Source of the DNA: an uncultured Gammaproteobacteria bacterium
Lineage (GTDB): Bacteria; Patescibacteriota; Microgenomatia; Levybacterales; UBA12049
Direction: 5' to 3'
DNA: 64,000 bases
NCBI GenBank assembly: GCA_964637955.1
Contig: CAZWXQ010000001.1
Location: 21,936 to 85,935 of the forward strand
Shown here piece after piece: positions 7,251 to 44,723 of this stretch. The notes under the pieces are model-generated. The model was not told where the DNA came from and did no database searches. It saw nothing but the letters and a program-made list of their open reading frames with translations. Position numbers and translations under genes: made by a program. Every line of letters starts with the position of its first letter. Positions within the stretch are counted from its first letter, which is position 1.

Positions 7251-7307
7251 TTAAGAAATCGTAAGAATTTTGAAAGAGGCTAATCTAAAAATTATTAATT
7301 AAAATGT

Positions 7308-8390
7308 TTAATTTTTAGTGAAAGAAAATCCTCTACCATCTCTAATAATCTTGCTACTAACACCTGAAAGATTAGCTATAATATGTTGCTTTTGATCATC
7401 AAGCTTTTGATATTCTCTTTGTCTTAATTTAGATAAGCCAATTTTCATTATTTGCCCTCCTAAATAATAAAATCTCTCTCTTTCATTTAAAGGTCTTTCT
7501 TTTACTTTTTCCTCTTCTTCAGTAATTTCATCATCTGTTAAAACATCAAGTCTTTTAAGAGTATTTATTGCTTCATCAAGTGCTTTTTCCTCTTCTTCAG
7601 CATTTCCTGGCTGAGATGCTTTCCTTTTTGCTGCTTCAAAATATTCTATTTTATTAGCCAAATCAAGCATCGCTTTTCTATTTATACCTTCAGGGATATT
7701 TCTAATATTTAAAACAGCACTTGAAGAAATACCACGATAGCCTGGATGAGACCCGGTAAAACCTGTTCCAACAAATCTACCACCTTGTGGAATTCTACTT
7801 ATAGTAGTACTTACAACTTCTTCAAAAACTTTTGGTCCCAAATATCTTAAACTTTCAATTGCAAACGCTAAATCTACCGTATTAATTCCATGAGAATCTA
7901 GGAAAGCTTCAAGGGATTGAGTTCGAGAAAGAGTGTAATAAAAATTTTTTACATTTATTTGTTGATTTATGGCTTGGTTAAGAGAATCTATTTTTGAATA
8001 GTCAATTGCTATTGGTTTTTCTGTATCCTGTAGATTTGGTTCTTGGCTATCCGTAAGGCCAATTACATTTAGTCTTAATCCAGGATTATCAACTAAAAAA
8101 GCTTTTAATTTTAAACTCTGAAGATTGTATTCTTTTAAATCTTTCATCATAAATCCATCACCACTTCCTATATCTATAACTGTTACTTCGCTTCTGCCAT
8201 TTACAACCGCATCTTTGAGCCTATCAAGCATTAAACTATCTACTGATTCACCGGTTTCAGTGATAAGACCATCTATTGAACTTATTCCTCTTGCAAAATA
8301 TTTAGGTTCAGTCGGACCAAGGTATAGGCCAGTAACTGCTTTAGTGTCTGGGGGTGTAGCTGGAGGCAGCTCAGTTCCTAAATCGCTCAT
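7308..8390 (-). CDS. Class I SAM-dependent methyltransferase domain protein with a charged coiled C-terminal region
   Basis: Motif I is VIDIGSGDGFMMKDL. Confidence 0.5.
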   Translation of the reverse strand: MSDLGTELPPATPPDTKAVTGLYLGPTEPKYFARGISSIDGLITETGESVDSLMLDRLKDAVVNGRSEVTVIDIGSGDGFMMKDLKEYNLQSLKLKAFLVDNPGLRLNVIGLTDSQEPNLQDTEKPIAIDYSKIDSLNQAINQQINVKNFYYTLSRTQSLEAFLDSHGINTVDLAFAIESLRYLGPKVFEEVVSTTISRIPQGGRFVGTGFTGSHPGYRGISSSAVLNIRNIPEGINRKAMLDLANKIEYFEAAKRKASQPGNAEEEEKALDEAINTLKRLDVLTDDEITEEEEKVKERPLNERERFYYLGGQIMKIGLSKLRQREYQKLDDQKQHIIANLSGVSSKIIRDGRGFSFTKN

Positions 8391-21272: not shown

Positions 21273-23279
21273 ATGAATTTATCTCAAAAAATATCAGTTG
21301 TAATTCGATTTTTTATTCTGCTTTTGGTTAATTCTGTGGGGGTTTATCTTCTCTCGCTACTTCTTAGTGGCGTTTATTTCGAAAACCTTTTAACAACTTT
21401 TATCGCAATAACTGTAATCGCAATTTTAAATTCAGTAATATTTCCTATTTTTAATAGATATGCATTGCCAGTTACTGTTTATACACTCGGAATAGCTGGA
21501 CTCATATTAAATGCATTAATTATTTCACTTGTTGCATATGCTATGCCGAATTTTAAAATTAATGATTTATTTTCAGGCATAGTTTTAGTTTTTGGAATTA
21601 CATTTGTAACAACCATAGTAACAGAGCTTTTGGCAATCGATGATGATGAAACATTCTTTAGAAATGTAGTGAAAAAACAAGCTAAAAAATCAAAAGATGA
21701 TAAAGTAAGTAAAATACCTGGAGTGATTTTTGTTCAAATTGATGGATTAGCATATGAGGTTCTACGTCGTGCAATGCAGAGTGGAAACGTTCCGAATATT
21801 TCTAAATGGATAAGAGATGGTGAATATAGACTTGAAAAATGGGAGACTGATTGGTCAAGTCAAACAGGAGCTAGTCAGGCGGGGTTACTTATGGGAAGTA
21901 ATGAAAATATCCCTGCATTCAGATGGTTTGATAAAAAACTTGGAAGAACTTTAGCTTTTGGAAAGCCAGCAGATTTAAAAATTATCGAAGAAAGACTTTC
22001 AAATAAAAAAGGCCTTTTGTTTCATAATGGTGCCAGTCGTGGAAATCTATTTTCTGGAAATGCTGATTATGTATTGCTTACCGTTAGTTCAATTGGGAAA
22101 AAAGATAGTAACGGTACAGCACATGGATACTTTGCATACTTCGCAAATCCGTATAATTTACCACGCACTGTGATACTCTTCTTCGTTGATGTAATCCGTG
22201 AAGTAAAAAGCTCTGTTGAACAAGGGAGACGAGATATTTGGCCACGCTTAACGCATCACAAATTAATCTACCCATTTTTAAGAGCATCAATGACAGTTAT
22301 TCAAAGAGATCTAATTATCCAAACACTCATAGGCGATGCATATGAAGGTCGAGATACTGTTTATGCAGATTTAGTTGGATATGATGAAGTTTCACATCAT
22401 ACAGGTCCAGAAAGGCATGAAACATTATCAGTGTTGAGGGATCTAGATAGACAGCTAGGGCGACTTAAAAAAGCTCTCGATAAAGTTCCAAGAAAATATC
22501 ATTTAGTTTTAGTATCAGATCACGGACAAACTCAAGGCGCTACATTCAAACAACTTATGGGATACGGGCTTGATGAATTGGTCAGTAAATTAATTGACGG
22601 AGAAGTTTCTTCTGAAATGAAAAACACGGAAGATAAAAATACTTTGAGCAATGCTGCTCTTGAGATTACTAAAACTGGTGGACTCGTCGCGAAAAGTATC
22701 AAGAGTGTTAAGAAGGTAAATAATAATTCTAAGAAAGAAAAAGAAGAGAAAACTAAAATTAACCCAGATGTAAAAGTATTAGCATCTGGTGCGCTAGGGC
22801 TTATTTACTTTACCAAATACAAAAATAGATTAACGCTTGAAGAGATTGATAAACTTTATCCAAATCTAGTTGATCAGCTTGCCTCACATCCTCATATAGG
22901 ATTTGTATTGGTAGATTCAAAAAAACATGGTGGAATAGTAATTGGGCCTGAAGGTGAATATTATCTTAAAAATGATAAAGTGATAGGAAAAAATCCTCTC
23001 GAGAATTTTGGGTCAAATGCTGCTATGCATATTAAAAGAACGCATAACTTTGAAAACTGTGGAGACATTATGGTTAATAGTACATATAGCCCTGTAATGA
23101 ATGAAGTTCATGCATTTGAAGAACTGCTTGGTTCTCACGGGGCTCTAGGGGGAGATCAGAACTTCCCATTTGTCCTTTTTCCAAACGGTTGGTATTATCC
23201 AGATGAACATATAATTGGGGCTGCAAATGTTCATAAAAATATGAAAAAATGGTTAAAGACGCTTGGGCAACCAGTTTGA
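21273..23279 (+). CDS. Fusion protein: an N-terminal DUF360 / phage-holin-family-IV-like 4-TM domain joined to an alkaline-phosphatase-superfamily nucleotide pyrophosphatase/phosphodiesterase domain
   Basis: Four TM helices in the first ~130 aa. Then VIFVQIDGLAYEVLRRA (metal-binding Asp context) and LVSDHGQTQG (the SDHG motif of the AP/NPP superfamily). Confidence 0.7.
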   Translation: MNLSQKISVVIRFFILLLVNSVGVYLLSLLLSGVYFENLLTTFIAITVIAILNSVIFPIFNRYALPVTVYTLGIAGLILNALIISLVAYAMPNFKINDLFSGIVLVFGITFVTTIVTELLAIDDDETFFRNVVKKQAKKSKDDKVSKIPGVIFVQIDGLAYEVLRRAMQSGNVPNISKWIRDGEYRLEKWETDWSSQTGASQAGLLMGSNENIPAFRWFDKKLGRTLAFGKPADLKIIEERLSNKKGLLFHNGASRGNLFSGNADYVLLTVSSIGKKDSNGTAHGYFAYFANPYNLPRTVILFFVDVIREVKSSVEQGRRDIWPRLTHHKLIYPFLRASMTVIQRDLIIQTLIGDAYEGRDTVYADLVGYDEVSHHTGPERHETLSVLRDLDRQLGRLKKALDKVPRKYHLVLVSDHGQTQGATFKQLMGYGLDELVSKLIDGEVSSEMKNTEDKNTLSNAALEITKTGGLVAKSIKSVKKVNNNSKKEKEEKTKINPDVKVLASGALGLIYFTKYKNRLTLEEIDKLYPNLVDQLASHPHIGFVLVDSKKHGGIVIGPEGEYYLKNDKVIGKNPLENFGSNAAMHIKRTHNFENCGDIMVNSTYSPVMNEVHAFEELLGSHGALGGDQNFPFVLFPNGWYYPDEHIIGAANVHKNMKKWLKTLGQPV

Positions 23280-28187: not shown

Positions 28188-29216
28188 ATGCTTAAAAGAA
28201 TAACTTCGGAGATTTCTAAAAATAAAAAGTCTATTCTCTGGACAATAATATTTGTAATAATTTTTTACCTGATTCTCCCCGATAAAGAAACAATAGAATC
28301 GACGGTTGAAGAAATCCACGGAGCAGATTTAGGTTGGATAATTGTTGGGAATATTTTTTACTACATAACGATTCCTTTATATACAATTCAACTAATAGTT
28401 CTTTCTATAAAGCCTTTAAATAATTGGATAGCATTTAAAGTGCAAATGTCCGTTCTATTTATTAACAAGCTTTTGCCGAGTTCTATTTCTTCATTTGTAA
28501 TAAACTCATTTTATTTATATAAAGTAGGTCATAAATCTCCACAAATCGCATCTATTATCGCGATGAAGGCTGTGACTAGTTCTCTTGCTTTTTCATCACT
28601 TTTTATCTTCTCGTTGGTAGTCGGAATTACAAAATATCAAATGGCTGATGGTTTAAATATTAATTCAGGAAATGTTGATTGGGTGAAAGTAGTTGTTTTA
28701 TTAGTAATTGGAGTTCTTATAATAAGCTTTGTTATTTATTCATCAGACATCATAAAAAACTTCATTAAAAAATCATTAGAAAGTTTTTGGGGACAATTTA
28801 AGTCATATAAAGATAGACCAAAAGATATTGTATGGGCATTAGTGACTTCATTTTTGGCACCTACCTTAGGAGTTCTTACTCTTTATGCGAGTTCAAAATC
28901 TGTGGGATTGGATATAAATTTCGCACAATCCTTTTTAATCTACACGCTTGGAACGACTATGGCAAATATAGTACCAATTCCTGGAGGAATTGGAGCAGCT
29001 GAAGCAGGATTGTATGCAGGGTTTACATTTTTTGGATTTCCATCTACTGAGTCAATGGCAGCGGTCATGATTTACAGAATAATTACTTTCTGGATACCAA
29101 CTATACCTGGATTTATCTCATTTATAAATCTTAGGAAAAATGTTCTAAAAGGATTTTCAATTCACTGGAAAATGCCGGAATCAAAATCAAAGTCTAAGAA
29201 GATTGCGAAAGCTTAA
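28188..29216 (+). CDS. UPF0104 / flippase-like (lysyl-phosphatidylglycerol-synthase TM-region) membrane protein
   Basis: NIVPIPGGIGAAEAGLYAGF is the signature of this family. Confidence 0.7.
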   Translation: MLKRITSEISKNKKSILWTIIFVIIFYLILPDKETIESTVEEIHGADLGWIIVGNIFYYITIPLYTIQLIVLSIKPLNNWIAFKVQMSVLFINKLLPSSISSFVINSFYLYKVGHKSPQIASIIAMKAVTSSLAFSSLFIFSLVVGITKYQMADGLNINSGNVDWVKVVVLLVIGVLIISFVIYSSDIIKNFIKKSLESFWGQFKSYKDRPKDIVWALVTSFLAPTLGVLTLYASSKSVGLDINFAQSFLIYTLGTTMANIVPIPGGIGAAEAGLYAGFTFFGFPSTESMAAVMIYRIITFWIPTIPGFISFINLRKNVLKGFSIHWKMPESKSKSKKIAKA

Positions 29217-30852: not shown

Positions 30853-31329
30853 ATGAAGTTTGCTTCTGTATTAAATTTAGTTCCTCACAAGGTTGCATAT
30901 GCGCACTGTGACATACCTTGTGGAATATATGATGTTCATCAGGCTCAATTAGCATCTCATACTATTATCCGCATGACTGATTTGTTTGGGCAAATTAAAA
31001 GAGATGATGAGCTTAAAGCCGAGCATGATGTATTCCGAGTTGCACATGTTAAAGAAGAGCACTCAAATATTTTAGAGCATGAATTGTCTACTCTTAAGGA
31101 TGATTATTTTAAAAATGATTATTCAAAATATCCTGATCTTGAGGAATTATTTAAAAAAGCATCTACTCTTGGATCAAAAGCTAGAACAGGAATTGATATG
31201 GAAAGTGCAAAAGAGCTTCTTGAAACAGTCATGAAAATCGCAGAAATATTTTATGAAAGTAAAGGTTTGGAATGTCATAGAGTAAAGTCTCCATATCCCA
31301 CAGGGCTTGATATTGTAGTCCAGAGATAA
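30853..31329 (+). CDS. sodN: Nickel-containing superoxide dismutase precursor
   Basis: The Ni-hook HCDIPCGIYD immediately follows a short propeptide (MKFASVLNLVPHKVAYA). The downstream helical bundle matches Ni-SOD (DDYFKN, KYPDLEEL, EIFYESKG). Confidence 0.8.
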   Translation: MKFASVLNLVPHKVAYAHCDIPCGIYDVHQAQLASHTIIRMTDLFGQIKRDDELKAEHDVFRVAHVKEEHSNILEHELSTLKDDYFKNDYSKYPDLEELFKKASTLGSKARTGIDMESAKELLETVMKIAEIFYESKGLECHRVKSPYPTGLDIVVQR

Positions 31330-31614
31330 ATGTTATTCTCATTATTTAAGATTTCAGGTCATAGTATGATCCCTTCATATTCTGAAAATGACAGCGTAAT
31401 CGTTAGTTCTATCTCGTACATGTTTATAAAGCCGAAAAAAGGAGATGTAGTGCTGTTTGAGAGAAATAATAAGTTTTATGTTAAAAGAATTAAGCATATT
31501 AAAGGAAGTGAATTTTTTTTAGTAGGCGATAATGAAAAGGATAGCTTAGACAGTAGAAAGTTTGGATTAATAAATAGAGAGCAAATAAAAGGTAAAATAA
31601 TCTTCAAATTTTAG
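31330..31614 (+). CDS. sodX: Ni-SOD maturation protease (S26/signal-peptidase-like)
   Basis: Small S26-like protein with SGHSMIP (Ser nucleophile) and a Lys in VKRIKH. Starts 1 nt after the sodN stop. Confidence 0.7.
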   Translation: MLFSLFKISGHSMIPSYSENDSVIVSSISYMFIKPKKGDVVLFERNNKFYVKRIKHIKGSEFFLVGDNEKDSLDSRKFGLINREQIKGKIIFKF

Positions 31615-31646: not shown

Positions 31647-32558
31647 TTGGTGAAGCCTCATGTCCTTAATGCACTAGATGTTCGTCAATTTCCGCAGTGG
31701 GGAGAGTATATGAAAAGTATAGGTTGGAAAGTTTACTTGATTGACGGTAAATTGGCATATGGGAAAAAAGTACCCTTGATGGGTCTTATTATTAAAATGC
31801 AACATCCGGCAGGACCCATAAATATTAAAAAAATTGATAAATTAGCAAAAAAAGAAAAAGCTTCAATGGTTACAATTGAACCTCATATATCTGGATATTC
31901 AGATAAAAATTTTCTAGTAAATAAATTTATTAAATCAAAAAGGACTTATGCTCCATCCAGCTCAATTTTAATTGATCTCAAGCGTAGTGAGAATGAAATA
32001 TTTTCTTCATTTTCAGAGAACGCAAGAAGAAATATTAAAAAAGCTAAAAATAAAAATATACAGATTAAGATAATTGATGTTAGTAAGGATAGAGAAAATA
32101 AAAGTTTTGAAGAATATTATTCTCTTTTGAAAAACCTTAGAAGAATAAAAGGCTTCTATGCTCCTGGATATCATGAGAGCAAGAAAAAAATGGAGTCTTT
32201 TAAAAATAATTCTATTTTAGTATTTGCATATGAAGATGAAATTCCAATAGCAGTAGTTTGGTACTCTTTCTTTAAAGGAAGTATGGTATATATGCAAACT
32301 GGCATTACAAAAAGAGGATATGCGCTTTTAGCGAATTATTTAATTGTTTGGGAAGGAATTCGTTGGGCAAAAAAACATGGTATTAATGTTTTTGATTTTG
32401 AGTCTATTTATGATTTTAGATATAAAAATCAAAATAAAAAATGGAAAGGATACACACAGTTTAAAAAAAGGTTTCATGGAGAAGAAATAAATTTTCCACC
32501 TTCATACACAAAGTATTATAATCCTTTACTTAGAGTTCTTGAGATTTTTCCTCGTTAA
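31647..32558 (+). CDS. FemAB-family aminoacyl-tRNA-dependent peptidyltransferase-like protein (TTG start)
   Basis: GNAT-fold Fem-like domains. TGATAATAT lies 4 nt upstream of the TTG. Confidence 0.6.
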   Translation: MVKPHVLNALDVRQFPQWGEYMKSIGWKVYLIDGKLAYGKKVPLMGLIIKMQHPAGPINIKKIDKLAKKEKASMVTIEPHISGYSDKNFLVNKFIKSKRTYAPSSSILIDLKRSENEIFSSFSENARRNIKKAKNKNIQIKIIDVSKDRENKSFEEYYSLLKNLRRIKGFYAPGYHESKKKMESFKNNSILVFAYEDEIPIAVVWYSFFKGSMVYMQTGITKRGYALLANYLIVWEGIRWAKKHGINVFDFESIYDFRYKNQNKKWKGYTQFKKRFHGEEINFPPSYTKYYNPLLRVLEIFPR

Positions 32559-32658
32559 TTTAAGATAAGCGATTTTTATAATTGATATATTTTCAAGATG
32601 AAATAATGTTATTTTTAAATATAAAATGTTTAGATTAAGCTTAATAATTAATCGATGA

Positions 32659-34167
32659 TTAAAAAGTTGAAATAGCTCGCTTAAAGACTTCATTTATTTT
32701 TTCTATCTCGTACATGCTTTCAGTTCCAACTGAAATCCGAATAAATGGAGTGCCATATTCGTTTCTAAGAGCTGTTAAATATATTCTAGTGTTATTGAAT
32801 CCAAAGCTTGTTCCTGTAGAGACCTGCACATTATTCTTTTTTGCTAGATTAATCACTTTATCTATAAATTTTACATATGTTCTTGGATTTTTATTTGATC
32901 TAAATTCTAGGCTAAAGAAGCTGCCATGAAACTTAATGTTTTGGTTCCATCTTGAAGATGAATGATTTTTTATTGTTGGATAATTAATTCTTTCTATATT
33001 TAAATTCGGTTTTTCGTCAATTAATTTTTGTAAAGATTTAGCTAAATAATTTGTGTTCCTTTCAAGTCTTAAAAGCCTTTTTGATAGAAATTTTTTATTT
33101 GGCGTCGGGAGCATGTGAACTGATATGTCAGAAATATTTGTACCACTATTTTGTCTGGAGTAATAAATCTTTCCAACATTTTTTCCATAAGCCAGTATTA
33201 TCCCTCCGGTAGTTCTATCCATTCCGAACTGATGATATTTATTCAAACTTTCTAAAACAAATAAATTTAAATTTCTATTTTTTCCTTTAATTAATTTCAG
33301 GGGTTGGAAGAAAATTGGAAGAGTAGTATTGTCTATTATTAAGTATGTATCTTTTTTAGAACTTTTTTTAAGATATTCAATAATGCTTAATAAATTTGGC
33401 ATTGCTAAATTTATAGAATTGCAAATTGTATCAAAAATTATTATTGAAGGTTTATGTTTAATAATAATATCAATTATTTCTTTCTCATTGTTTTCATCAA
33501 CTTCAATTACTTTATCTTCAAAAAATCTTTTGATGATTTCTTTGTTTTGAAAATAAATAGATTTTCCAATTAAGATTTTTCCTGTTACTTTTTTTTCAGT
33601 TATTAAGAAATTGATAATTGTAATGAATGCTGCCATTCCATTATTTACTGCATATGCATGAACAGGAAGTTTAAAAATTAAGTCAACGTATTCATTTAAA
33701 AATTTTTTTTCGTAAGGCTGTTCATCAAGATGTATGTCTCTTTTATAGTCTGAAATAGTATGTTTTATCTTTCCGCTTTGTCTTCCGGCCAATGAATAAA
33801 GACTATGATTAAAGGTCGGTGATTGCCAGTCTGTAGATGTTATTAATGCTGAAAATAACCCTACATTAGCTCTAAGAAAGTGGAAATATATATTTTTTTT
33901 ATCCTGGAGGTATAGTAGTTCTTTTTGAGTATTTGATTTTTCTGCTTTATGTAAATCTTTTTCAATTTCTGTAATTGATTCATTTACGTTTTTTAAATAT
34001 TTTAGCGTTGATGTTTTAGTTATACTATAAGTAATAATATTTTTTTTATTATCATCAATTTCTTTATTAAATTTTAATATCTTATTAAGAAAATCTTTAT
34101 AAAGAAAGTTTAATTCTTCTAAATCTTCTTTTAAATCTTTTATAGAAACGATTATTATTTCTTCCAT
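32659..34167 (-). CDS. Divergent Cys/Met-metabolism PLP-dependent enzyme (CGS/CBL/MGL fold) with a ~150-aa N-terminal helical extension
   Basis: Ordered motifs: NGMAAFITI (cf. SGMAAI), LIIDNTTLP (cf. DNTFATP), the SLNKYHQFGMDRTTGG PLP-lysine region (cf. SxTKxxxGHxD), and the C-terminal RISVGTE (cf. RLSVGIE). Confidence 0.5.
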   Translation of the reverse strand: MEEIIIVSIKDLKEDLEELNFLYKDFLNKILKFNKEIDDNKKNIITYSITKTSTLKYLKNVNESITEIEKDLHKAEKSNTQKELLYLQDKKNIYFHFLRANVGLFSALITSTDWQSPTFNHSLYSLAGRQSGKIKHTISDYKRDIHLDEQPYEKKFLNEYVDLIFKLPVHAYAVNNGMAAFITIINFLITEKKVTGKILIGKSIYFQNKEIIKRFFEDKVIEVDENNEKEIIDIIIKHKPSIIIFDTICNSINLAMPNLLSIIEYLKKSSKKDTYLIIDNTTLPIFFQPLKLIKGKNRNLNLFVLESLNKYHQFGMDRTTGGIILAYGKNVGKIYYSRQNSGTNISDISVHMLPTPNKKFLSKRLLRLERNTNYLAKSLQKLIDEKPNLNIERINYPTIKNHSSSRWNQNIKFHGSFFSLEFRSNKNPRTYVKFIDKVINLAKKNNVQVSTGTSFGFNNTRIYLTALRNEYGTPFIRISVGTESMYEIEKINEVFKRAISTF

Positions 34168-34183
34168 AGCGATAATTATAACA

Positions 34184-35074
34184 TTGGCTTATACTAATGC
34201 CATGACAAAATTAAGATATAAGAATTCAGTTATAGACGGTCAGGAAATTAATATCCCTTTTGCAATTATTAATGAAAAGAAAAGTAAATCAATATTAATA
34301 ACTGGAGGAATTGATGGGGACGAATATGTTGGAATAAAGGCAGCGTTTAAGCTGATAAATGATCTAGATAAAATTAAATCAGAATACAGAATAATAATAG
34401 TTCCTCTGGTGAATGTTTTTGGAAATAAAATTGGAGTTAGTCATAATCCTTTTGATGGGAAATACCCAAAGTATATATATCCAGGGAAAAAAGATGGCAC
34501 ATCAAGTGAACAACTTATATATCAATTGGAGGAATTTATAAATGAATGCTTTTTATGGATTGATTTACATTCAGGTTCTACTGAAGAAAAGTTGAATCCT
34601 TTTATTTGGACTTGGAAAACAAAGAATAAAAATATTAATGAGATCACCAGATCATTTCTGTCCAATCTATCAAATGAAAATATTATTTATCAAGATAAAT
34701 CTATAAGAAAAATTGAAGAACTTGCAAAGAGAAATATCTCATATTTGATGCTTGAATCAGGTGAATTAGGAAAAGAAAATATAAATGATATTTTAAAGCA
34801 TGTGGATTGGGTTAAAAAAATAATATCAAAAAAATCAACACAAGGTCCTTTGTCTGTTTATAAAAAAGTTCAGTTTTATAAATTTAAAAATTCAGAAATG
34901 TGGAAGCCTGAGATTAATCCAGGAAAAATAAATGAGGAAAAGTTAGTCGGAATTCTTGGTAAGAAGAAAATAATTTCAAATAAATCCGGATTGTTACTTT
35001 ATATGAAGAAATCTATGATTTTGAAAAAAGATACTGAACTTTTTGCAATTGCTTATGAAAAAGTAAAAATTTAA
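34184..35074 (+). CDS. AstE/AspA-like (succinylglutamate desuccinylase / aspartoacylase family) putative zinc deacylase
   Basis: LITGGIDGDEYVG resembles the family GGxHGNE metal site. Size is appropriate. Confidence 0.4.
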   Translation: MAYTNAMTKLRYKNSVIDGQEINIPFAIINEKKSKSILITGGIDGDEYVGIKAAFKLINDLDKIKSEYRIIIVPLVNVFGNKIGVSHNPFDGKYPKYIYPGKKDGTSSEQLIYQLEEFINECFLWIDLHSGSTEEKLNPFIWTWKTKNKNINEITRSFLSNLSNENIIYQDKSIRKIEELAKRNISYLMLESGELGKENINDILKHVDWVKKIISKKSTQGPLSVYKKVQFYKFKNSEMWKPEINPGKINEEKLVGILGKKKIISNKSGLLLYMKKSMILKKDTELFAIAYEKVKI

Positions 35075-36105
35075 TTTCTTTTCTTTGCTTTAAGATATGC
35101 CCAGCGAACTTTATCTGCTACAGTAAGAAGTCTATAGTTAAGTGGATTAATTACCAAATCAAAACTTCCTGCAAATTCGGTTAAACTAGCTCCAAAGCCT
35201 TGTTTGAACCTATGAAACCCGTAGTATGGATCGCTATTTTTTGGTTCGGGCACATTTGCTGCTCCCCACATATCAAAAGATTTAAGGCCTAGACTTTTGC
35301 CATATTTTATTGCTCCCCACATCGTAGCAGGTGAAGCCATTACATCTCTGTGCTCATCGCTTGATGCGCCGTATGGATAGTAAAGTTTATCTTTAAAGGT
35401 AAATAGAACGTAAGTTACTAATGTTTTTTTATTGTAGCTAGCTCTCAAGAGATTTGCTTGGAGTTTATTTGGATCAAACGATTCATTTTTTTTATTTCCA
35501 ATAGTTTCCCAAAGAAGTTTATGATAAGCATCATTATGTGCATAAAATTTTTGCCTTTTTGTAGTTTCATGGGTTAGTTTGAGATAGTCATTAAATGCTT
35601 TTTCGCTATTATCAATTTCTACTTTTACTCCTTTCTTCTCAGAAAGTTTGACATTGTATCTGGTTTTTTGATGCATATTTGAAAGAAGCTCTTCTTCTGA
35701 CCTAGTTAGATCAAGCATAAAAGTGAACCGCGTAAATAGTGGGTGAAAAGATGGGCGAATGTCAAAATTTTCAATTTTCAATTTAAAATTTTCAGTTGTT
35801 ATATTGGGCTCAAGTTGAATAAAACTAATTGAATTTTTCTTACCTAATTCTTCAAGATCTGAAATAAGATTTTTTGATGGTAAATCACCTTTTGGAAAAT
35901 AACCAATTAGATATGGAAAATTTGGAGTTTTATGGACTGTAAATTGGTAAGCTTCTTTAATTTTGCCTTCAATTATTTCTCCTCTGAAATAAGCATCAAG
36001 TCCTGTTTTTTTTCTAAATTGTCCCCATTCATAAGATTGAAGTGGATGATTTACAGCTTCGTTAAAAAGTTTAATCTGATCTTCATTTATATCCTGAAAG
36101 TTCAT
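35071..36105 (-). CDS. FemAB-family peptidoglycan-bridge / aminoacyl-tRNA-dependent transferase
   Basis: N-terminal SYEWGQF (cf. FemX QSWEWG) and two GNAT-like domains. Confidence 0.7.
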   Translation of the reverse strand: MNFQDINEDQIKLFNEAVNHPLQSYEWGQFRKKTGLDAYFRGEIIEGKIKEAYQFTVHKTPNFPYLIGYFPKGDLPSKNLISDLEELGKKNSISFIQLEPNITTENFKLKIENFDIRPSFHPLFTRFTFMLDLTRSEEELLSNMHQKTRYNVKLSEKKGVKVEIDNSEKAFNDYLKLTHETTKRQKFYAHNDAYHKLLWETIGNKKNESFDPNKLQANLLRASYNKKTLVTYVLFTFKDKLYYPYGASSDEHRDVMASPATMWGAIKYGKSLGLKSFDMWGAANVPEPKNSDPYYGFHRFKQGFGASLTEFAGSFDLVINPLNYRLLTVADKVRWAYLKAKKRN

Positions 36106-37913
36106 AGAAAATCTGGGACATCATCATAATTGGCATTCATGATAATCGTTTCTTTAGGAATATCCAAAATAAATCTAGAGAGAGTATTTGAAGATTGTTG
36201 TCCATAAATTAGTCTTCTTTTTGAATAAGTCATAAAAAGTTTTTGTTTGGCACGTGTTATTCCGACATAACAAAGTCTTCTTTCTTCTTCAAGCTCACTT
36301 TTTTCCATAAGAGATCGTGAGTGAGGAAAAATTCCCTCTTCCATTCCTACCATAAATACGGTTGGGAATTCGAGCCCTTTTGCAGAATGGAGAGTCATAA
36401 ATGTTACGGCATTTGATTTGTCTCCGTTTATTGGGTTATCTGTAAGTTGCTCTTGTTCAACTAAGGAGATGTTTTCCAAAAATCCTGAAAGATTTGGAAA
36501 TTCTATTGCAACTGATCTAAGTTCTTTTATGTTTTCAAGTCTTCCCATATCCTCTTCTTCTTTCGGATCATAAAGAGAGAGATATCCTGTTGCTTCAAGT
36601 ACTTTATCCAAAGTTTCTATAGTGCTATTTTTATCTTTTTCAAATGTTTCCATGAATTCCATAAACTTTTTAAGTCGGGTTTTTCCAATTTTTTCCAGTC
36701 GTTTAAATGAAATATTATCTTTTTCATTATCAATAACACGAAGATATGCTAGTATGTCTTTTATTTCTTTTCTTTCATAAAAACGAGTGCCTCCTACAAG
36801 TGTATACGGCACTCCATGATGAAGAAAGACCTCTTCAATTACACGGGACTGTGCATTTGTTCTGTAAAGAACTGCAACATCCCTTGGTTCAAGGCCTAGA
36901 TTTACTATTTGAGAAATTATGAATTCAGCTTCGTTATGCTCGTTTTGGGCTTCAAAGGTGATTATTTTTTCTCCTTCTGAATTCTGCGTCCAAAGCTTAA
37001 GTACAGGATGGGAGGTGTTTTTTGAGATTACTGAGTATGCAGAATCAAGAATAATTTGGGTTGATCTATAATTTTGTGAAAGATGAAAAGTCTGAACGTT
37101 TTTAAAATCAGTTTTAAATGTAATTAGGTTTTGAAAATTTGCTCCTCGAAAACTGTAAATACTTTGTGAGAAGTCTCCAACAACACAGATATTTTTCCAT
37201 CTTTGCGAAAGCTTCTTTGTCAGCATATATTGAGCTTTATTTGTATCCTGGTATTCATCTACTAGGATATATTTATATTTTTCCTGATACTTTTTAAGGA
37301 TATCTGGATTTTTATCAAAAAGCTCAATTGTTCTTCCCATGAGGTCATCAAAGTCCACTGCGTTATTTTCTTTTAGAATCCTTTGATAAAATGGATAAAT
37401 TTTAGAAACAGTTTCTTGAAAATAACCTCGTGCCAAATTTAAATATTCAAGATCACTAATCATTTGGTTTTTTGCCTGTGAAATCGTCGAAAGAACTGAA
37501 TAAGGCTTAAAATCCTTGGTTGAAACATTTGCCCTTGCCATAGCCTCTTTTACAGCGTCAACAGAGTCTTGTGTATCATATATAGTGAACTTTTCGGAAA
37601 ATCCGATATGTTTTCCTTCGATTCTTAGAATTCTAGCGCAAATAGAATGAAAAGTGCCAATTGTAGGTTTAATGCTGTCTCCACAAAGCTTTGCAATTCT
37701 TTCTTTCATTTCAGCTGCAGCCTTATTTGTAAAAGTAACCATTAAAATATTTGTAGGATCTACGTTTTTCTTTTGGATTAAATAAATTACTTTGTAAGTT
37801 AAAACACGTGTTTTTCCACTGCCTGCACCTGCTAGAATAATCATAGGACCATCTGTAGCTTTTACTGCATTTTGTTGTTCAATATTTAGATCCTTGAGAA
37901 TATCAATTTCCAT
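36102..37913 (-). CDS. UvrD/PcrA-family ATP-dependent DNA helicase
   Basis: Walker A is GAGSGKTRVLT, with helicase motifs II-VI. Overlaps the upstream gene by 4 nt. Confidence 0.85.
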   Translation of the reverse strand: MEIDILKDLNIEQQNAVKATDGPMIILAGAGSGKTRVLTYKVIYLIQKKNVDPTNILMVTFTNKAAAEMKERIAKLCGDSIKPTIGTFHSICARILRIEGKHIGFSEKFTIYDTQDSVDAVKEAMARANVSTKDFKPYSVLSTISQAKNQMISDLEYLNLARGYFQETVSKIYPFYQRILKENNAVDFDDLMGRTIELFDKNPDILKKYQEKYKYILVDEYQDTNKAQYMLTKKLSQRWKNICVVGDFSQSIYSFRGANFQNLITFKTDFKNVQTFHLSQNYRSTQIILDSAYSVISKNTSHPVLKLWTQNSEGEKIITFEAQNEHNEAEFIISQIVNLGLEPRDVAVLYRTNAQSRVIEEVFLHHGVPYTLVGGTRFYERKEIKDILAYLRVIDNEKDNISFKRLEKIGKTRLKKFMEFMETFEKDKNSTIETLDKVLEATGYLSLYDPKEEEDMGRLENIKELRSVAIEFPNLSGFLENISLVEQEQLTDNPINGDKSNAVTFMTLHSAKGLEFPTVFMVGMEEGIFPHSRSLMEKSELEEERRLCYVGITRAKQKLFMTYSKRRLIYGQQSSNTLSRFILDIPKETIIMNANYDDVPDFL

Positions 37914-39707: not shown

Positions 39708-41833
39708 TTTAACTTATAGATTTTTGTGTCGTTACTTTCGTAGATTAATTTTCCAAGTTTATTAAATTTTTCTTCAGAAATTTTATATTTTTCATTCTCT
39801 AAAACACCAATATAAATATAGGAGATATTATATTTATCTATAATTCCTTTTGCTAAATTCATGTCGGTTGTTTCATATAAATTTGTTATATCATTAAATC
39901 GTTTCGAAGGAGTATCATAACTTCCGCGCCACAGCCATTCATGAACTGTCCATCCTAGAACTGTAGGAAGTCCTGTATTTGCAGATATTCTAGCAAAGTC
40001 AGTGTATGAATCTCCCTGAGCCTCTAAGATAACTGGTTGTCCTCCAATAGTATTATTAATAAATTTAATTGCTTTATAATCTTCAGGCTTGATAACTTCA
40101 AGATATTTTAATCCATCAAGTCCTTTGTATGTCTTTAGATTTCCGTATCCTGAAGGGATTGCAAAATAAGGATAAATTGAAACTAAGAAAAGTAATATTA
40201 CTCCCCAAAATATGAAAATTGCATATCCAATTTTCCCAAGTGAACTTTTTGCTCCATTTTCCCTGAGAGAAGATAGGACTCTAATGATTGTATAAACGCT
40301 TGAAATGGAAAGCATTATAAATGCCTGATAGGATAGTTTAAACATGGTGTTAGCTCTAAAATGTCCTGTGTATATATCTTTTAGATAGATTATTTCAGGA
40401 GCCAAAATGAGGAGTAGTGAAAATAACGAAATTGTAAGTATGAAATAATCTGAAATTATTAATTTTTTTCTAAGTAGAAAAATCATGAGAGAAATTACCA
40501 TAAAAATAAAAAAACCATAAAGAATAAATAAAGTCCAAATTGGAGAAATTTGACAGAAATCTTTCTCAAAAATTAACGGCCCTATCTTTCCAATCTTAAT
40601 TAAAAAATTTGGAGAACAATTTAATCCAATTCCAGAAGCAAAAGGAGCAAAATTTTTATTGAACATAAAAGAAAATACAAAAAAAGATACCACTAGAAGC
40701 AAGACTGGTTTGATCGATTTGAGAGCGGAATTTATAAATTTTCTCACAACTTTCCCATTTTGATTTAGTAAATTTATTAAGAAAATAAAAATAAAACTTA
40801 ATCCCAGATAGATTAGTCCATCCCAAGCGTTTGTCATATAGGCTATGGAGAGTAAAAACGATAATAAAAGAGTTACTGAATATGAAACTTTTTTATTAAA
40901 GATTAAAACTAAGAATAAGCTAATCATAGTAAGGACTACAGGTATATCTAGGACATGTCCATGAAGATCTGCTACCACAAATGAATACAGAGGAAATTCA
41001 TGAATAGTATGATAAATAAATCTGGTGGCGCTTGGATACCAATAAGAATTTGGAAAAGTTGCAAGAGATAGTTTTAAATCCCAAAGAGGCTTTGGATATT
41101 CGGACTCATAATGAGCAAAGATTGAATATAGTGTTTGCAAATTTCCGGCAAATGAAACTACATATGCGAAGAAAAGACCTAAAATAAATGATTTTTTAAT
41201 TGAAAACTTTTTAATTTTATCGATAAGATTTATTCCAATTGAAAATGACATTGAAAAAGTAAATGCAAAAATTGTTGCAAGCATCAGGTTAAATGAAATT
41301 AAGGATGGAATACTGGAAATTTTTGTTGCAACTGCGGTAAACAAATGACCAAAGTAATAATAATTAATTGATAGTGGCGTTAGCCACATATCTCGTGGAG
41401 GAAAATATTCAGATCTTAAAATAGAGTTGATAAATCCAAAGTCCATATATTTTTCTAGATCATGAATGTCAGGATTAAATCCTTTAATATATGACCACAA
41501 GAAAAGTGCAAGAAGAAAAATAATTTCTTCAATGATAAAAAATTTAATATCTCTTTTATTAATTATTTTTTTATTTTTAATTAATAATATTTGTGGTATT
41601 AAAAGCACGATCCAAACAAGTAAGATATTTAATTGATTAAATTTGAGTATATGAAGTGAGCCGAGAATAAAAACTGAATATGAAATAATAAGTAAGCCAA
41701 TAACTTTTGAGAAAATATAACCTTTATCTAAGAAGTTTGAAAAAATCTTAGTGGTAAGAGGTAGAAAACTAATACCAATTAGCAGAAAGACTGCCCACCA
41801 TTTGAATACAAAAATAATCTCTAATCCTGTCAT
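39704..41833 (-). CDS. Large polytopic membrane protein, DUF2298/GT-C-like, with a C-terminal soluble domain
   Basis: ~13 TM helices followed by ~180 aa that are non-membrane. Overlaps its neighbours by 4 nt. Confidence 0.5.
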   Translation of the reverse strand: MTGLEIIFVFKWWAVFLLIGISFLPLTTKIFSNFLDKGYIFSKVIGLLIISYSVFILGSLHILKFNQLNILLVWIVLLIPQILLIKNKKIINKRDIKFFIIEEIIFLLALFLWSYIKGFNPDIHDLEKYMDFGFINSILRSEYFPPRDMWLTPLSINYYYFGHLFTAVATKISSIPSLISFNLMLATIFAFTFSMSFSIGINLIDKIKKFSIKKSFILGLFFAYVVSFAGNLQTLYSIFAHYESEYPKPLWDLKLSLATFPNSYWYPSATRFIYHTIHEFPLYSFVVADLHGHVLDIPVVLTMISLFLVLIFNKKVSYSVTLLLSFLLSIAYMTNAWDGLIYLGLSFIFIFLINLLNQNGKVVRKFINSALKSIKPVLLLVVSFFVFSFMFNKNFAPFASGIGLNCSPNFLIKIGKIGPLIFEKDFCQISPIWTLFILYGFFIFMVISLMIFLLRKKLIISDYFILTISLFSLLLILAPEIIYLKDIYTGHFRANTMFKLSYQAFIMLSISSVYTIIRVLSSLRENGAKSSLGKIGYAIFIFWGVILLFLVSIYPYFAIPSGYGNLKTYKGLDGLKYLEVIKPEDYKAIKFINNTIGGQPVILEAQGDSYTDFARISANTGLPTVLGWTVHEWLWRGSYDTPSKRFNDITNLYETTDMNLAKGIIDKYNISYIYIGVLENEKYKISEEKFNKLGKLIYESNDTKIYKLN

Positions 41834-43095
41834 AATTTAATAAATAATTTTATATTTCTTCTAATATCTGGAACTAGTACTATACCTGTAAGAATTAAAA
41901 TTGGCAAGATTTGTAAAAGTGAAACCATTTTCCAAGTTGTAAAAGTAGGATCTACGCCTAGCACTTTATCGCTAATAATTCCAATGTTTAATAATCTAAA
42001 GATGAAGAAAGTATTTGGAAGGCTGATTATTAAAATTAAAATTCTAGAAATTCTAGATTGAAATTCAACAAGCGTTAAAAGACAAATTGCCAAAACAGGA
42101 CCAAGAACACTAAAGTGATATTGAAAAATCAGATCATAAAAAAATAAGAAATAAACTACTAGTAGGAAAATCGATTTTTCAATTTTTATTTTTTTATCAA
42201 ATGATAAGATATAAATTGAAATAAGTGATAATATTTTTAAAATCCGTATTTGATTGATTGAAAAGCCAAAGCCGTTCCTGAGTAGGGCATCAAGAGAAAG
42301 AAAATCAATTCCTTTGGTAGCTATTGGAGTAAGTAGGTGATAAAAAATATTATTCGTATAATAATCGCCTAAACCTAAAAGATTAAAAGTAAGAGTTGAA
42401 ATTAAAAATATAGAAAGACCAATAATCGCAAGTTTTTTTTCTTTTTTAATTATTAAAACAGGAAGAAAGAGAAGACTAACTGGTTTCGCAATAAGAGTTA
42501 TAAAATAGAAAATTCCACCCTCAAGCTTGCTCTTATGTTTAGTCAAGTTAATTAAGAAAAATAAAATAAAAATATTAAATAAGAACTGAAACTGAGAGAT
42601 TTTTATTTCATTATATTGAGAAAAGAAAATAAGAAAGATAAAGATTGCAAAAGCTAAATATTTATTTTCTATAAAATTTTTATATATATAGAAAACACTG
42701 AATAGAGATATGAATATTTTAAAAATAATCCAGGCATTTATAGAAATTTCAGGATTAGTTAGAATTAATGCCCCGCCTAATATTATGGTTAAGAGTGGAT
42801 GGTAGACATTTAAATTTGTAACATAGTTTTTCGCATATGGTTCAAATCCATTCAGTAGCGTGCCATCTAATCCTCCGCCATTTATAAATGCATATGCTCC
42901 ATTAGGAATTTGATAAAAATCTAATCCTTGGCAACAGTGATGAATTGAGCTACCAAAAAAGAAAAAATCTAAAAAATGTGTTGAGAGAGCAGAAATATTA
43001 AATAAAAAATAAATTATAAATCCCAAAATTACAAGCTTACTTTTTATTACGTAATAAATAAATCTGTTAAGTTCAGACATAAAATTTAATAACAA
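41830..43095 (-). CDS. Polytopic membrane protein (GT-C/DUF2029-like, hypothetical)
   Basis: 421 aa with >10 TM segments. Operonic overlaps. Confidence 0.45.
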   Translation of the reverse strand: MLLNFMSELNRFIYYVIKSKLVILGFIIYFLFNISALSTHFLDFFFFGSSIHHCCQGLDFYQIPNGAYAFINGGGLDGTLLNGFEPYAKNYVTNLNVYHPLLTIILGGALILTNPEISINAWIIFKIFISLFSVFYIYKNFIENKYLAFAIFIFLIFFSQYNEIKISQFQFLFNIFILFFLINLTKHKSKLEGGIFYFITLIAKPVSLLFLPVLIIKKEKKLAIIGLSIFLISTLTFNLLGLGDYYTNNIFYHLLTPIATKGIDFLSLDALLRNGFGFSINQIRILKILSLISIYILSFDKKIKIEKSIFLLVVYFLFFYDLIFQYHFSVLGPVLAICLLTLVEFQSRISRILILIISLPNTFFIFRLLNIGIISDKVLGVDPTFTTWKMVSLLQILPILILTGIVLVPDIRRNIKLFIKL

Positions 43096-44723
43096 TTATC
43101 AGCAGTTTTATATATTGTATATTTTTCATCAGGATTATTATAAATCGAAGTAAATTCGTTTTCCCACAATGAAGATATTGGAGGCAAGTCAGGATTTGGT
43201 GTATTTTCAATTTTAATTTCTATATAATCTAAATTATTTAATTTTAGTAAATTGCATGCCTGAAATTTATTATTTGATCCCAAAATTTCTTTTAGCACAT
43301 CCCCTCTTTTATAGGTATCATAGCCTTGTGACCATGCAAAATATGGCCATCCAAAGAAAACTTTCCTGCCTGCAAGTGAAGGTGGATCATATAGATAAAT
43401 AGTATTTAAAAATGTTGCATTTTTTGGAGTATTGTTTAAAATCCAGGCAGCATTTGGGTTTGATCTCACATCATGAATTGTAATTTTATGATCATTTAAG
43501 AGAGGAAAAAAATCTATAATCCCACCAAAGATCATAAAAAAAGCAAAAATTATTGCTACAGGTTTTAGTAAATTATTTTTTTTCCAAATTAAATAAATTG
43601 CAAAGGCACAATACATATTTGTAATCAACGCAAAAAAATTGAAGAACTTATGATTTGCAGCAATTTCTGGAGAGAATTGAATTAAATTACCTATAATAAA
43701 AAGTGGGATAAAAGAAATTAGAAATTTCTTTTGATTTCTATTGGCTAAAATAAATCCAATTGGAATTAGAAAAAATGAAATCCCCAAATTATAAATCCAA
43801 AACTGTGTGAATTTAAAATAAGTAAATTCATTTGCAACTAAATATCCTGGATGAAAAAACATCTTAAAACCTTCTGAAGAATTTAAGTACATATATTGAG
43901 GAAATGCGATTATCGCTGTGATTATTAATAATAAAATTGAATATTTTCTAATCTGTTTAAATAAAATGGCTAAAAAGAATATTGTTGAAGCGGTCATGAT
44001 AAATACTGCCATGTGAAGAAAAAAAGAAAGTCCGAGTAAAATTCCTAGAATAATAAAAACTTTTATTTCAGGTCGTTCTTTTTTAAATATCGGTTTTAAT
44101 ATCAAATAAATTATGAGCAAAGATAATCCAAAAGAAACTGCTAGATGTCTTTGATTTGTATAAATATTAAGATTCCAAAAAGCGGAAACAATACCTTTAT
44201 CATAAGGAGCAAATGATTGGAAATTATCAATAAGTGGAATATTCTCAATTGAATTTAGGGTAAGTGGATTGTTTTTGAAGTAATAATAGTATGAAATTGA
44301 GGAATTAAAAATAAAAAATATCACACTTAATAATCCTACTAATCTTGATTTAAATACAGTTTTTGCTAATATAAAGATCATAAAGCATAGAAAAATAAAT
44401 CCTAAAATTGATGGTATATTTAATGCTAAATCAATTGGAAGTCCAAATTTTTCAAGCAGCCCTACTCCAAAATAAAATAAAAAATGATATTTAATTGCTT
44501 CACCCGAAAAAAGAGGATACTCTGGAGGAAAGTTTACTCCATAAGAAAATGATCTGATAAGTGGAATGTGACTTGCGAAATCACTCCATGATTTTGTCGA
44601 GATCATAAGTGAATCATTTTCTTTCGAAAAAGAAGAGAACATTAAGAAGCTTCCAATAATTAGGCCAATTAAGATTACAAGGATTTCAAAGTAATGTTTG
44701 CGGAAAAATTCATTAATTCTCAC
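43086..44723 (-). CDS. Polytopic membrane protein, GT-C-like (ArnT/PMT-like topology) with a C-terminal periplasmic domain
   Basis: ~12 TM helices plus a ~120-aa C-terminal soluble region. Confidence 0.45.
   Translation of the reverse strand: MRINEFFRKHYFEILVILIGLIIGSFLMFSSFSKENDSLMISTKSWSDFASHIPLIRSFSYGVNFPPEYPLFSGEAIKYHFLFYFGVGLLEKFGLPIDLALNIPSILGFIFLCFMIFILAKTVFKSRLVGLLSVIFFIFNSSISYYYYFKNNPLTLNSIENIPLIDNFQSFAPYDKGIVSAFWNLNIYTNQRHLAVSFGLSLLIIYLILKPIFKKERPEIKVFIILGILLGLSFFLHMAVFIMTASTIFFLAILFKQIRKYSILLLIITAIIAFPQYMYLNSSEGFKMFFHPGYLVANEFTYFKFTQFWIYNLGISFFLIPIGFILANRNQKKFLISFIPLFIIGNLIQFSPEIAANHKFFNFFALITNMYCAFAIYLIWKKNNLLKPVAIIFAFFMIFGGIIDFFPLLNDHKITIHDVRSNPNAAWILNNTPKNATFLNTIYLYDPPSLAGRKVFFGWPYFAWSQGYDTYKRGDVLKEILGSNNKFQACNLLKLNNLDYIEIKIENTPNPDLPPISSLWENEFTSIYNNPDEKYTIYKTADNCY

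Follow-up and report, generated by a model that had tools for sequence, protein, structure and literature searches.

A conserved gene pair of a PLP enzyme and an Asp-variant deacylase in bacteria of the candidate phyla radiation, and its weaker association with Fem-type transferases

Gene content of the locus and recurrence of its central pair

The window analyzed here is a stretch of 64,000 nucleotides (nt) of contig CAZWXQ010000001.1, from a genome placed by GTDB in the Levybacterales of the Patescibacteriota, or candidate phyla radiation (CPR). At its centre lie four contiguous genes: a FemAB-like gene (Fem1), a gene for a pyridoxal 5'-phosphate (PLP) enzyme of the Cys/Met-metabolism family, a gene for an AstE/AspA-like deacylase, and a second FemAB-like gene (Fem2) (Table 1). 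An earlier sequence-only reading had described these four open reading frames (ORFs), and their coordinates and strands were confirmed, as were the motifs quoted from the translations (NGMAAF, DNTT, SLNKYHQFGMDRTTGG, RISVGTE and GGIDGDEYVG) and the family assignments (two FemAB-like, one Cys/Met PLP and one AstE/AspA protein), all of which score above the Pfam curated cut-offs. That reading had also treated the genes as one cluster, and here the comparison with other genomes went against it. The strands alternate (+, -, +, -), so that the four genes cannot form one operon, and among the loci examined all four occur together only in one other genome (L009). A single four-gene operon is ruled out by these two observations, and the region is instead a junction of separable units, the best conserved of which is the divergent pair formed by the PLP and deacylase genes.

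The recurrence of this pair was determined in 80 genome loci with a homolog of the PLP protein, one species per genome, of which 75 were usable for neighbourhood counts; the neighbouring genes were identified by ORF calling followed by searches with the window proteins and with iterated and domain-level profiles. In 34 of the 75 loci the PLP gene has a deacylase gene beside it on the other strand, the two genes being immediately head-to-head in 30, immediately convergent in 3, and one ORF apart in the remaining locus. Spacing between the two genes in these relatives ranges from about -67 to +103 nt. The pair is found in Gottesman-, Levy-, Woese-, Uhr-, Magasanik-, Adler-, Falkow- and Peribacteria, and it occurs in both major CPR sub-clades of the PLP tree. 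In the reciprocal test, 70 metagenomic loci were retrieved by the deacylase motif T[AG]GxDGDEY, and the PLP gene was the immediate neighbour in 54 of these and lay one spurious ORF away in 5 more. The PLP gene was absent in only 3 loci with room on both sides, most of the others being contigs that were too short, which places the deacylase beside the PLP gene in roughly 85% of the judgeable loci. Adjacency in this many independent loci excludes chance for the pair, and the functional link between the two genes is real. Literature searches returned no description of a PLP-deacylase pair, of a PLP family with the N-terminal extension found here, or of the fusions of Fem-like with S-adenosylmethionine (SAM)-fold domains described below.

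Table 1. Positions of the genes and of residues and segments discussed in the text, numbered from the first letter of the window (aa, amino acids; AF2, AlphaFold2; pLDDT, predicted local distance difference test)
Feature	Position	Strand	Length	Basis and remarks
Fem1	31647-32558	+	303 aa	Pfam FemAB 42.4 bits (cut-off 24), 5e-11
Cys/Met-family PLP enzyme	32659-34167	-	502 aa	Pfam PF01053 Cys_Met_Meta_PP 61.4 bits (cut-off 27), 7e-17, residues 169-488
AstE/AspA-like, DoeB/EutE-like amidohydrolase, Asp variant (deacylase)	34184-35074	+	296 aa	Pfam PF24827 AstE_AspA_cat 50.3 bits (cut-off 25), 2.7e-13
Fem2	35071-36105	-	344 aa	Pfam FemAB 109.1 bits (cut-off 24), 3e-31
Head-to-head intergenic region, PLP enzyme/deacylase	34168-34201			16 nt to TTG start, 34 nt to ATG at 34202
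PLP enzyme K310, Schiff-base Lys (ESLNK)	33238-33240	-		Invariant in 32 sequences; codon verified
PLP enzyme D279 (DNT), expected partner of the PLP pyridine nitrogen	33331-33333	-		Invariant; codon verified
PLP enzyme R477 (FIRISVGTE), alpha-carboxylate Arg	32737-32739	-		Invariant; codon verified
PLP enzyme N-terminal extension, residues 1-110, three-helix bundle	33838-34167	-		AF2 model, pLDDT >89
PLP enzyme residues 111-148, conserved TSTDWQSP...NDYKRDxH segment	33724-33837	-		Alignment; pLDDT 60-67 in monomer model
Deacylase D44-G-D-E47, metal-site motif	34313-34324	+		Asp replaces first Zn-ligand His of H-G-D/N-E, invariably
Deacylase H129, retained	34568-34570	+		Invariant in 26 partners
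Deacylase E191, retained	34754-34756	+		Invariant in 26 partners
UvrD/PcrA helicase, directly upstream of Fem2	36102-37913	-		Pfam UvrD-helicase 1e-89
NiSOD	30853-31329	+		Pfam Sod_Ni 4e-30
SodX-like S26/S24-type peptidase, directly upstream of Fem1	31330-31614	+		Pfam Peptidase_S26 1e-19

Genomes related to that of the window show how the pair sits among its neighbours. In L009, whose PLP protein is 60% identical to that of the window, the gene order is DUF2298-LytR-TIM-UvrD-Fem2, then AstE-PLP-Spm (Spm denoting a spermidine-synthase-like gene), then Fem1-SodX-SodN, which is the backbone of the window. L091 shares this backbone; there Fem1 and Fem2 are directly adjacent, and a PLP or deacylase gene is absent. 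As L091 lacks the pair and L009 contains it, the pair behaves as a two-gene indel at the junction. True orthologs of the window's Fem proteins flank the pair only in L009, which has both, and in the levybacterial locus L011, which has Fem1 only.

The window is AT-rich (G+C 26-38%), and scans for promoters and terminators gave sites at a frequency no higher than in shuffled sequence. An extended -10-like element for the PLP gene (34203-34175) lies within the annotated 5' end of the deacylase ORF, and its end is only a few bases upstream of the start codon of the PLP gene, a position that suggests a leaderless or near-leaderless PLP transcript. The same position makes the ATG at 34202 the probable start of the deacylase. 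Fem1 and the PLP gene are convergent, Fem1 follows the NiSOD and SodX genes on the same strand, and the start of Fem2 overlaps the uvrD/pcrA stop by 4 nt. Genes for a LytR-CpsA-Psr protein and for MurJ are also present in the window (Pfam). Farther from the pair, a stretch with overlapping gene ends (41830-46002) encodes on one strand a flavin-containing amine oxidoreductase (44713-46002; Pfam 6e-21), two proteins of 421 and 545 aa with no Pfam match, and a DUF2298 membrane protein. A 668-aa protein (21273-23279) combines an N-terminal Phage_holin_4_2 domain with four transmembrane segments and a type I phosphodiesterase/nucleotide pyrophosphatase domain.

Conserved residues of the PLP enzyme and the deacylase

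The PLP protein is a member of a discrete, deep-branching family. Full-length homologs of about 500 aa number more than 120, and a search of 1.84 billion representatives placed the family at about 411 clusters at 50% identity (E<=1e-30). The homologs are mostly from CPR bacteria (Gottesmanbacteria, Levybacteria and others), with further members in Thermoleophilia (Solirubrobacterales and Gaiellales) and Obscuribacterales. A PDB search with the single PLP-protein sequence gave no match, and profile and fold searches did give matches. The AF2 model (mean pLDDT 89.6) was matched by Foldseek to cystathionine gamma-synthase (CGS), cystathionine gamma-lyase (CGL) and methionine gamma-lyase (MGL) at 16-20% identity, with no subfamily favoured. 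Conserved columns were read from an alignment of 32 homologs. The catalytic Lys expected of the fold is present, K310 being invariant and aligned by profile with the Lys of the S-A-T-K motif in CGL (8j6n) and MGL (7bqw). The Asp expected of the CGS family is likewise in place, as the invariant D279 aligns with the DNT of CGL and MGL, and R477 aligns with the 'LVRLSVGLE' of MGL 7bqw. Residues N250 and S307 are invariant or nearly so. Taken together, these residues make the PLP enzyme look active and built for a free alpha-amino acid.

The N terminus distinguishes the family. The sequence-only reading had noted a helical domain of about 150 aa; the helical extension is borne out by the AF2 model, and its length is revised to about 110 aa, arranged as a three-helix bundle (residues 2-39, 47-76 and 81-110) with invariant residues E18 and R99. 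This extension is kept across the CPR, Thermoleophilia and Obscuribacterales homologs. The following segment, residues 111-148, is the probable counterpart of the normal N-terminal segment of the Cys/Met family including its Y-x-R motif, and contains the invariant columns Q115, S116, G128, D140, Y141, K142, R143, D144 and H146. In this family the Y-x-R binds the PLP phosphate, reaching the active site of the neighbouring subunit. Residues Y141-x-R143 would be this motif, as inferred from the motif order and from a match to NCBIfam PRK08574 that starts at residue 117. When compared with the transsulfuration enzymes MetB, CGL and MGL, the PLP enzyme has in common the type I fold, the Lys of S-x-x-K, the Asp of DNT, the Arg of R-x-S-x-G-x-E and an N-terminal Y-x-R, whereas the 110-aa bundle and the invariant DWQSP...DYKRDxH are additional and the position aligned with the Tyr of 'YGGT' holds Leu or Ile. 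The N-terminal helices and the Fem neighbours raised the possibility of a tRNA-dependent PLP enzyme of the SelA, SepCysS or SepSecS type; this is unlikely, given the invariant R477, a bundle without basic character, and profile and fold matches that are all to gamma-enzymes acting on free amino acids.

Conservation in the deacylase was determined from 26 partner sequences found beside PLP genes. Their invariant residues are T40, G42, D44, G45, D46, E47, D127, H129, E135 and E191, within the shared motifs T-x-G-x-D-G-D-E and W-x-D-x-H. The family profile matches over its full length 3cdx (3e-28) and the N-acetyl-L-2,4-diaminobutyrate deacetylase DoeB/EutE (6twm, 3e-27), and D44 aligns to the first zinc-ligand His in the 'GVHGDEY' and 'ANHGDEY' of the solved relatives. 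The canonical His-Glu-His zinc triad (H-x-x-E...H) is accordingly incomplete in the partner sequences, its first His being absent and replaced by D44, with E47, H129 and E191 kept; metal binding by an Asp-Glu-His triad is plausible, and from these motifs we assign the deacylase to a putative DoeB-like subfamily with such a site. The similarity to DoeB/EutE (PDB 6TWM/6TWL) extends through the C-terminal domain and includes the catalytic Glu as well as Glu and His as metal ligands. In contrast to DoeB, the first metal-ligand His is Asp in the subfamily of the window, no gene resembling the ectoine hydrolase doeA/eutD was seen in any locus examined, and the score against NCBIfam DoeB (TIGR02994) is 55.9 bits with a cut-off of 402.7. 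In the Doe pathway of ectoine catabolism, DoeB is genetically coupled to a PLP enzyme acting on the deacylated C4 amino acid. The pair described here also couples a deacylase to a PLP enzyme, but one of the gamma-family and not a class-III transaminase.

Fem-type transferases and alternative partners

Fem1 belongs to a group of about 105 CPR homologs of 300-320 aa. A profile search of PDB sequences with Fem1 gave no match, and the window Fem proteins do not reach the NCBIfam FemX equivalog (37 vs 500 bits). The AF2 model of Fem1 (pLDDT 93.3) was used for a Foldseek search, in which the top 27 matches are all aminoacyl-tRNA-dependent transferases. FemX of Weissella viridescens ranks first (2e-18), followed by FemX of Staphylococcus aureus, Sbb17/Sba18, FemA and the MprF synthase domains, with acetyl-CoA-dependent tandem GNATs ranking below the aminoacyl-tRNA-dependent transferases. 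Template modelling scores against FemX are 0.73-0.80 (0.80 for S. aureus FemX). Residues F272-K273 are invariant among the Fem1 homologs and correspond to the F-K motif of FemX, in which Lys305 is the key residue (PMC12945691). As modelled, Fem1 is a divergent FemX-fold (double GNAT) transferase of the aminoacyl-tRNA type and forms a separate CPR subfamily. Fem1 and Fem2 share the double-GNAT fold and the F-K motif with the FemABX enzymes of W. viridescens and S. aureus, and both are without a coiled-coil insert, as is W. viridescens FemX (PMC12945691). The Fem fold also serves small-molecule pathways: the natural-product relatives of FemABX include VlmA, DhpH-C/DhpK and PacB as well as Orf11/Sba18, and Sbb17/Sba18 are aminoacyl-tRNA-dependent peptide synthases acting on the small amine streptothrisamine (PMC12945691). 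In the window, a stand-alone LPG_synthase_TM protein (28188-29216; Pfam 7e-31), which corresponds to the membrane domain (flippase type) of MprF and has no aminoacyl-phosphatidylglycerol synthase domain attached to it, is encoded 2.4 kb upstream of Fem1.

Fem1 is characteristically adjacent or fused to a SAM-fold domain, an architecture mentioned neither in a review of such transferases (PMC12945691) nor in the other literature found. Four Fem1 homologs (P0126, P0131, P0138 and P0166; 52-55% identity, about 510 aa) are fusions with a domain resembling spermidine synthase (Spm-like). In L090 and L092 the Fem1 and Spm-like genes overlap and lie beside genes for UbiA, an MraY-type family 4 glycosyltransferase (GT4) and MurJ. 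An Spm-like gene separates the PLP gene from Fem1 in L009, where the window has only 101 nt, and such a gene is found within four genes of the PLP gene in 13 of the 75 loci. Some Spm-like proteins are fused to a domain with no Pfam match, termed domain X, which is homologous to the C-terminal GNAT of Fem1 including its W-K-G-x-S-x-F-K motif (hhalign 97.5%, E=7e-12; control alignments of deacylase, ATP-grasp and Spm, 0.1%). Fusions of Spm-like with Fem1-like domains occur in L041, L043, L060, L061, L129, L131 and L153. Among the 70 deacylase-centred loci, about 16 have an Spm, X or Fem1 gene within three genes, typically with Spm and PLP genes on one strand and the deacylase and X genes pointing the other way. 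Compared with a rough chance expectation of 1%, the enrichment corresponds to P values of about 1e-9 to 1e-17, which are not corrected for phylogeny. The genes vary in order, orientation and fusion, and this speaks for repeated recruitment and not for inherited synteny. The link of the pair to a Fem1-type gene is weaker than that between PLP and deacylase genes, but it is significant.

The Spm-like partner is not a true spermidine synthase by its signature motifs, and it scores far below the equivalog cut-offs for polyamine aminopropyltransferases. The Asp of GGGDG discriminates decarboxylated SAM (dcSAM) from SAM. In a remote and hence provisional alignment of P0138 (L091 4457-5983; residues ~360-470) with Plasmodium falciparum spermidine synthase, GGGDGG becomes GVGAGD and DSSDP becomes DIFIG, so that Ala stands in place of the discriminating Asp and DSSDP has lost its second Asp. 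The domain may bind SAM rather than dcSAM and may act as a methyl- or aminocarboxypropyl-transferase. The order of NiSOD, SodX and Fem1 in the window is also found in L009 (13036-13787) and L091 (3643-4457). The gene for the SodX-like peptidase overlaps Fem1 or the Fem1-Spm fusion in these two genomes, which suggests that a Fem-type transferase is co-transcribed with NiSOD in this CPR lineage.

Fem2 differs from Fem1 in its relation to the pair. Its profile matches S. aureus FemX (6snr) over both domains with 1e-20, 'HRFKQGFG' aligning to 'WAFKKVWG', and the start/stop overlap with uvrD is found in the window, L009 and L091 alike. Beyond close relatives, the 75 PLP and 70 deacylase loci show no recurrence of a Fem2-type gene near the pair. 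Fem2 is probably a canonical FemX-type gene in a uvrD/pcrA helicase unit and not part of the conserved module. The earlier view of two Fem genes as bracketing partners gains support for the Fem1 type and not for Fem2, and it missed the recurrent Spm-like partner of Fem1, which the window does not contain. Overall, the observation made by the sequence-only reading is confirmed and its interpretation is partly supported.

In several Microgenomates the PLP gene adjoins a different gene, encoding an ATP-grasp protein of 285 aa (L005 7147-8004, L039 9123-9980, L018, L024, L025 and L029). The two genes overlap by 4 nt in L005, where the ATP-grasp gene follows BacA and two genes for class-A penicillin-binding proteins are nearby. 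The protein matches the model of the D-cycloserine synthetase DcsG end to end (7e-48), with a score of 163 against an equivalog cut-off of 360, which it does not reach; it is accompanied by no other dcs genes, and the gene is not in the window. ATP-grasp and deacylase genes never co-occur in the loci examined. Directly upstream of the PLP gene in L057, a 502-aa protein (6809-8317) fuses an Spm-like with a DcsG-like ATP-grasp domain, in parallel with the Spm/Fem1-like fusions elsewhere, and we read the ATP-grasp protein as a non-homologous replacement of the Fem-type amide-forming step. In the Obscuribacterales (L083 9917-17242; also L076 and L079-L087) the PLP family is fused to an SbnA/CysK-like fold-type-II PALP domain in a protein of ~890 aa, followed by a LysA-like decarboxylase, a short-chain dehydrogenase/reductase, a canonical CGS-like Cys/Met PLP enzyme and a flavin adenine dinucleotide-dependent oxidoreductase. 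This cluster, with four PLP domains in one apparent operon, is an apparent context of amino-acid or diamino-acid tailoring. The Thermoleophilia neighbourhoods of the PLP gene contain no conserved or informative partners. A queA gene, for S-adenosylmethionine:tRNA ribosyltransferase-isomerase, is found downstream of the PLP gene, immediately or at a short distance, in at least two unrelated loci (L001/L014 and L005/L006), too sporadically to interpret.

Proposed pathway and competing explanations

The preferred explanation, to which we give about an even chance, is that the deacylase frees an amine for the PLP gamma-enzyme and that the product feeds aminoacylation and alkylation by Fem1 and the SAM-fold partner, with Fem2 being separate. 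The head-to-head PLP enzyme and the cytoplasmic DoeB-like amidohydrolase would act in sequence. A PLP enzyme needs a free alpha-amine, so that the simplest place for a neighbouring N-acyl-amino-acid amidohydrolase is the step right before it, and from this we infer the order of the two steps. The idea of the sequence-only reading that an amino acid is "unmasked locally" fits such a deacylase feeding the PLP enzyme. By analogy with N-acetyl-2,4-diaminobutyrate, the amidohydrolase would remove the N-alpha-acyl group from a four-carbon amino acid of the 2-amino-4-X-butyrate type. The freed alpha-amine would allow the PLP enzyme to form the external aldimine and then to carry out an alpha,gamma-elimination or a gamma-replacement at C-gamma. 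This substrate class is suggested because skeletons of the 2-amino-4-X-butyrate type are handled by the nearest characterized relatives of either enzyme, those of the deacylase acting on diaminobutyrate and those of the PLP enzyme on homocysteine, methionine, cystathionine or O-acyl-homoserine. The second unit would be Fem1 with the Spm-like SAM-fold alkyltransferase, or the DcsG-like ATP-grasp ligase in place of the Fem-like domain. These partners suggest that the pathway amine is aminoacylated and alkylated, and the combined pathway probably ends in an aminoacylated and/or SAM-alkylated amine, present either as a free metabolite or as an envelope substituent. Fem2 would be an ordinary FemX-type peptidoglycan-branch enzyme transcribed with uvrD/pcrA.

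A likeness of logic is found in the dehydrophos pathway. There, DhpH has a PLP-dependent domain fused to a Fem-like, Leu-tRNA-dependent domain, and DhpI is a SAM-dependent methyltransferase. The Fem-like proteins that this pathway uses are DhpH-C and DhpK (PMC12945691). A PLP enzyme, Fem-fold transferases and a SAM-fold enzyme work together on a single small molecule that resembles an amino acid, but the likeness goes no further: there are no phosphonate genes here, the PLP family is different, and the deacylase has no counterpart in dehydrophos.

Several observations weigh against the preferred explanation. In 41 of the 75 PLP loci there is no deacylase nearby, and the Thermoleophilia and Obscuribacterales homologs are never found with one. 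The canonical 'YGGT' Tyr (Y114 of MGL/CGL and Y101 of Escherichia coli CGS) stacks on PLP and acts as an acid/base. The profile alignment puts L199/I200, Leu or Ile in this family, at the position of this Tyr, and five residues on there is a conserved Y205-F206, of which Y205 may take over the role of the Tyr; the chemistry of the PLP enzyme may for this reason differ from gamma-elimination. The PLP protein misses the NCBIfam equivalog cut-offs for CGS, CGL, cystathionine beta-lyase, MGL and O-acetylhomoserine sulfhydrylase, the best score being 54 bits vs 477 for PRK08574. As all equivalog cut-offs were missed widely, specific functions cannot be transferred to the window proteins. The theme of C4 amino acids and diaminobutyrate is taken by analogy from the nearest characterized homologs. 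The window has no Spm-like gene, its Fem1 is convergent rather than co-directional with the PLP gene, and within its own lineage the Fem genes may be close by through inherited synteny. A purely catabolic or salvage role with no connection to Fem1 would equally suit a hydrolase followed by a lyase, and the pair may have such a catabolic role in the many loci without accessory genes.

Two other functional explanations are each unlikely. In the first, which develops the bridge model of the sequence-only reading, all four genes cooperate in peptidoglycan synthesis, the pair making or unmasking an unusual (di)amino acid for the stem or bridge, for example 2,4-diaminobutyrate, or cystathionine or another thioether diamino acid, and Fem1 and Fem2 adding bridge residues in two steps from aminoacyl-tRNA. 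Fem2 is a close relative of FemX and Fem1 has the FemX fold, the nearest characterized relative of the deacylase releases a diamino acid, and envelope genes lie nearby both in the window (LytR-CpsA-Psr and MurJ) and elsewhere (BacA and the two penicillin-binding proteins of L005; the MraY-like GT4, UbiA and MurJ of L090 and L092). However, Fem2 does not recur with the pair beyond close relatives, L091 keeps Fem1 and Fem2 without the pair, and none of the loci examined links a mur ligase to the pair. No function in peptidoglycan is known for the Spm-like and DcsG-like partners, and the use of the Fem fold in small-molecule pathways (PMC12945691) also argues against this explanation.

In the second, which we regard as similarly improbable, the pair stands alone and serves the salvage or breakdown of N-acylated sulfur or C4 amino acids that the cell scavenges, and the Fem genes are unrelated neighbours. 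Its substrates would be, for example, N-acetyl-methionine, N-acetyl-homocysteine or N-acetyl-cystathionine, converted to 2-oxobutyrate or pyruvate, ammonia and a thiol, or to cysteine. CPR bacteria are scavengers with few biosynthetic pathways, which counts for this explanation, as do the best sequence and fold matches to the gamma-lyases CGL and MGL, the fusion of the Obscuribacterales homologs to a CysK/SbnA-like domain beside a canonical CGS/CGL gene, and the fact that 28 of the 34 pair loci have no Spm, Fem or ATP-grasp gene nearby. Against this, Spm-like, Fem1-like or ATP-grasp genes recur across deep lineages beside the pair or the PLP gene, in varied arrangements and fusions and much more often than estimated for chance, and the PLP family is remote from MGL and CGL and lacks the canonical Tyr at the aligned position.

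A chance juxtaposition of four unrelated genes in a compact genome, for which the alternating strands without a common operon, the placement of Fem2 in a helicase transcription unit and of Fem1 after the NiSOD genes, and the uninformative promoter and terminator scans could be cited, is highly improbable for the locus as a whole given the adjacency of the pair and the recurrence of Fem1-like and Spm genes beside it, although it is most likely the correct description for Fem2.

Each of the proteins represents a new subfamily of a known superfamily, and their association has only loose precedents in DoeB with its PLP transaminase and in dehydrophos. CPR bacteria are usually regarded as almost devoid of biosynthesis. 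A bolder reading, which we consider possible but rather doubtful, is a previously undescribed CPR pathway in which a new PLP gamma-family, its obligate Asp-variant deacylase and a Fem/SAM-fold (possibly aminocarboxypropyl-transferring) or ATP-grasp partner make an aminoacylated, alkylated compound resembling a diamino acid or polyamine, serving as an envelope substituent or as a secreted or chelating metabolite. The fusion of Fem-like with SAM-fold domains and the interchange between Fem-like and ATP-grasp partners constitute directly testable enzymology. The PLP-deacylase module itself is a conserved biochemical capability for which no literature description was found, in a group that makes up a large share of bacterial diversity and whose metabolism has been inferred largely from what its members lack. 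If the product is an envelope modification, it would bear on the construction or decoration of the wall in CPR episymbionts; should it be a free metabolite, biosynthesis by CPR bacteria would gain a rare example and aminoacyl-tRNA a new use beyond translation.

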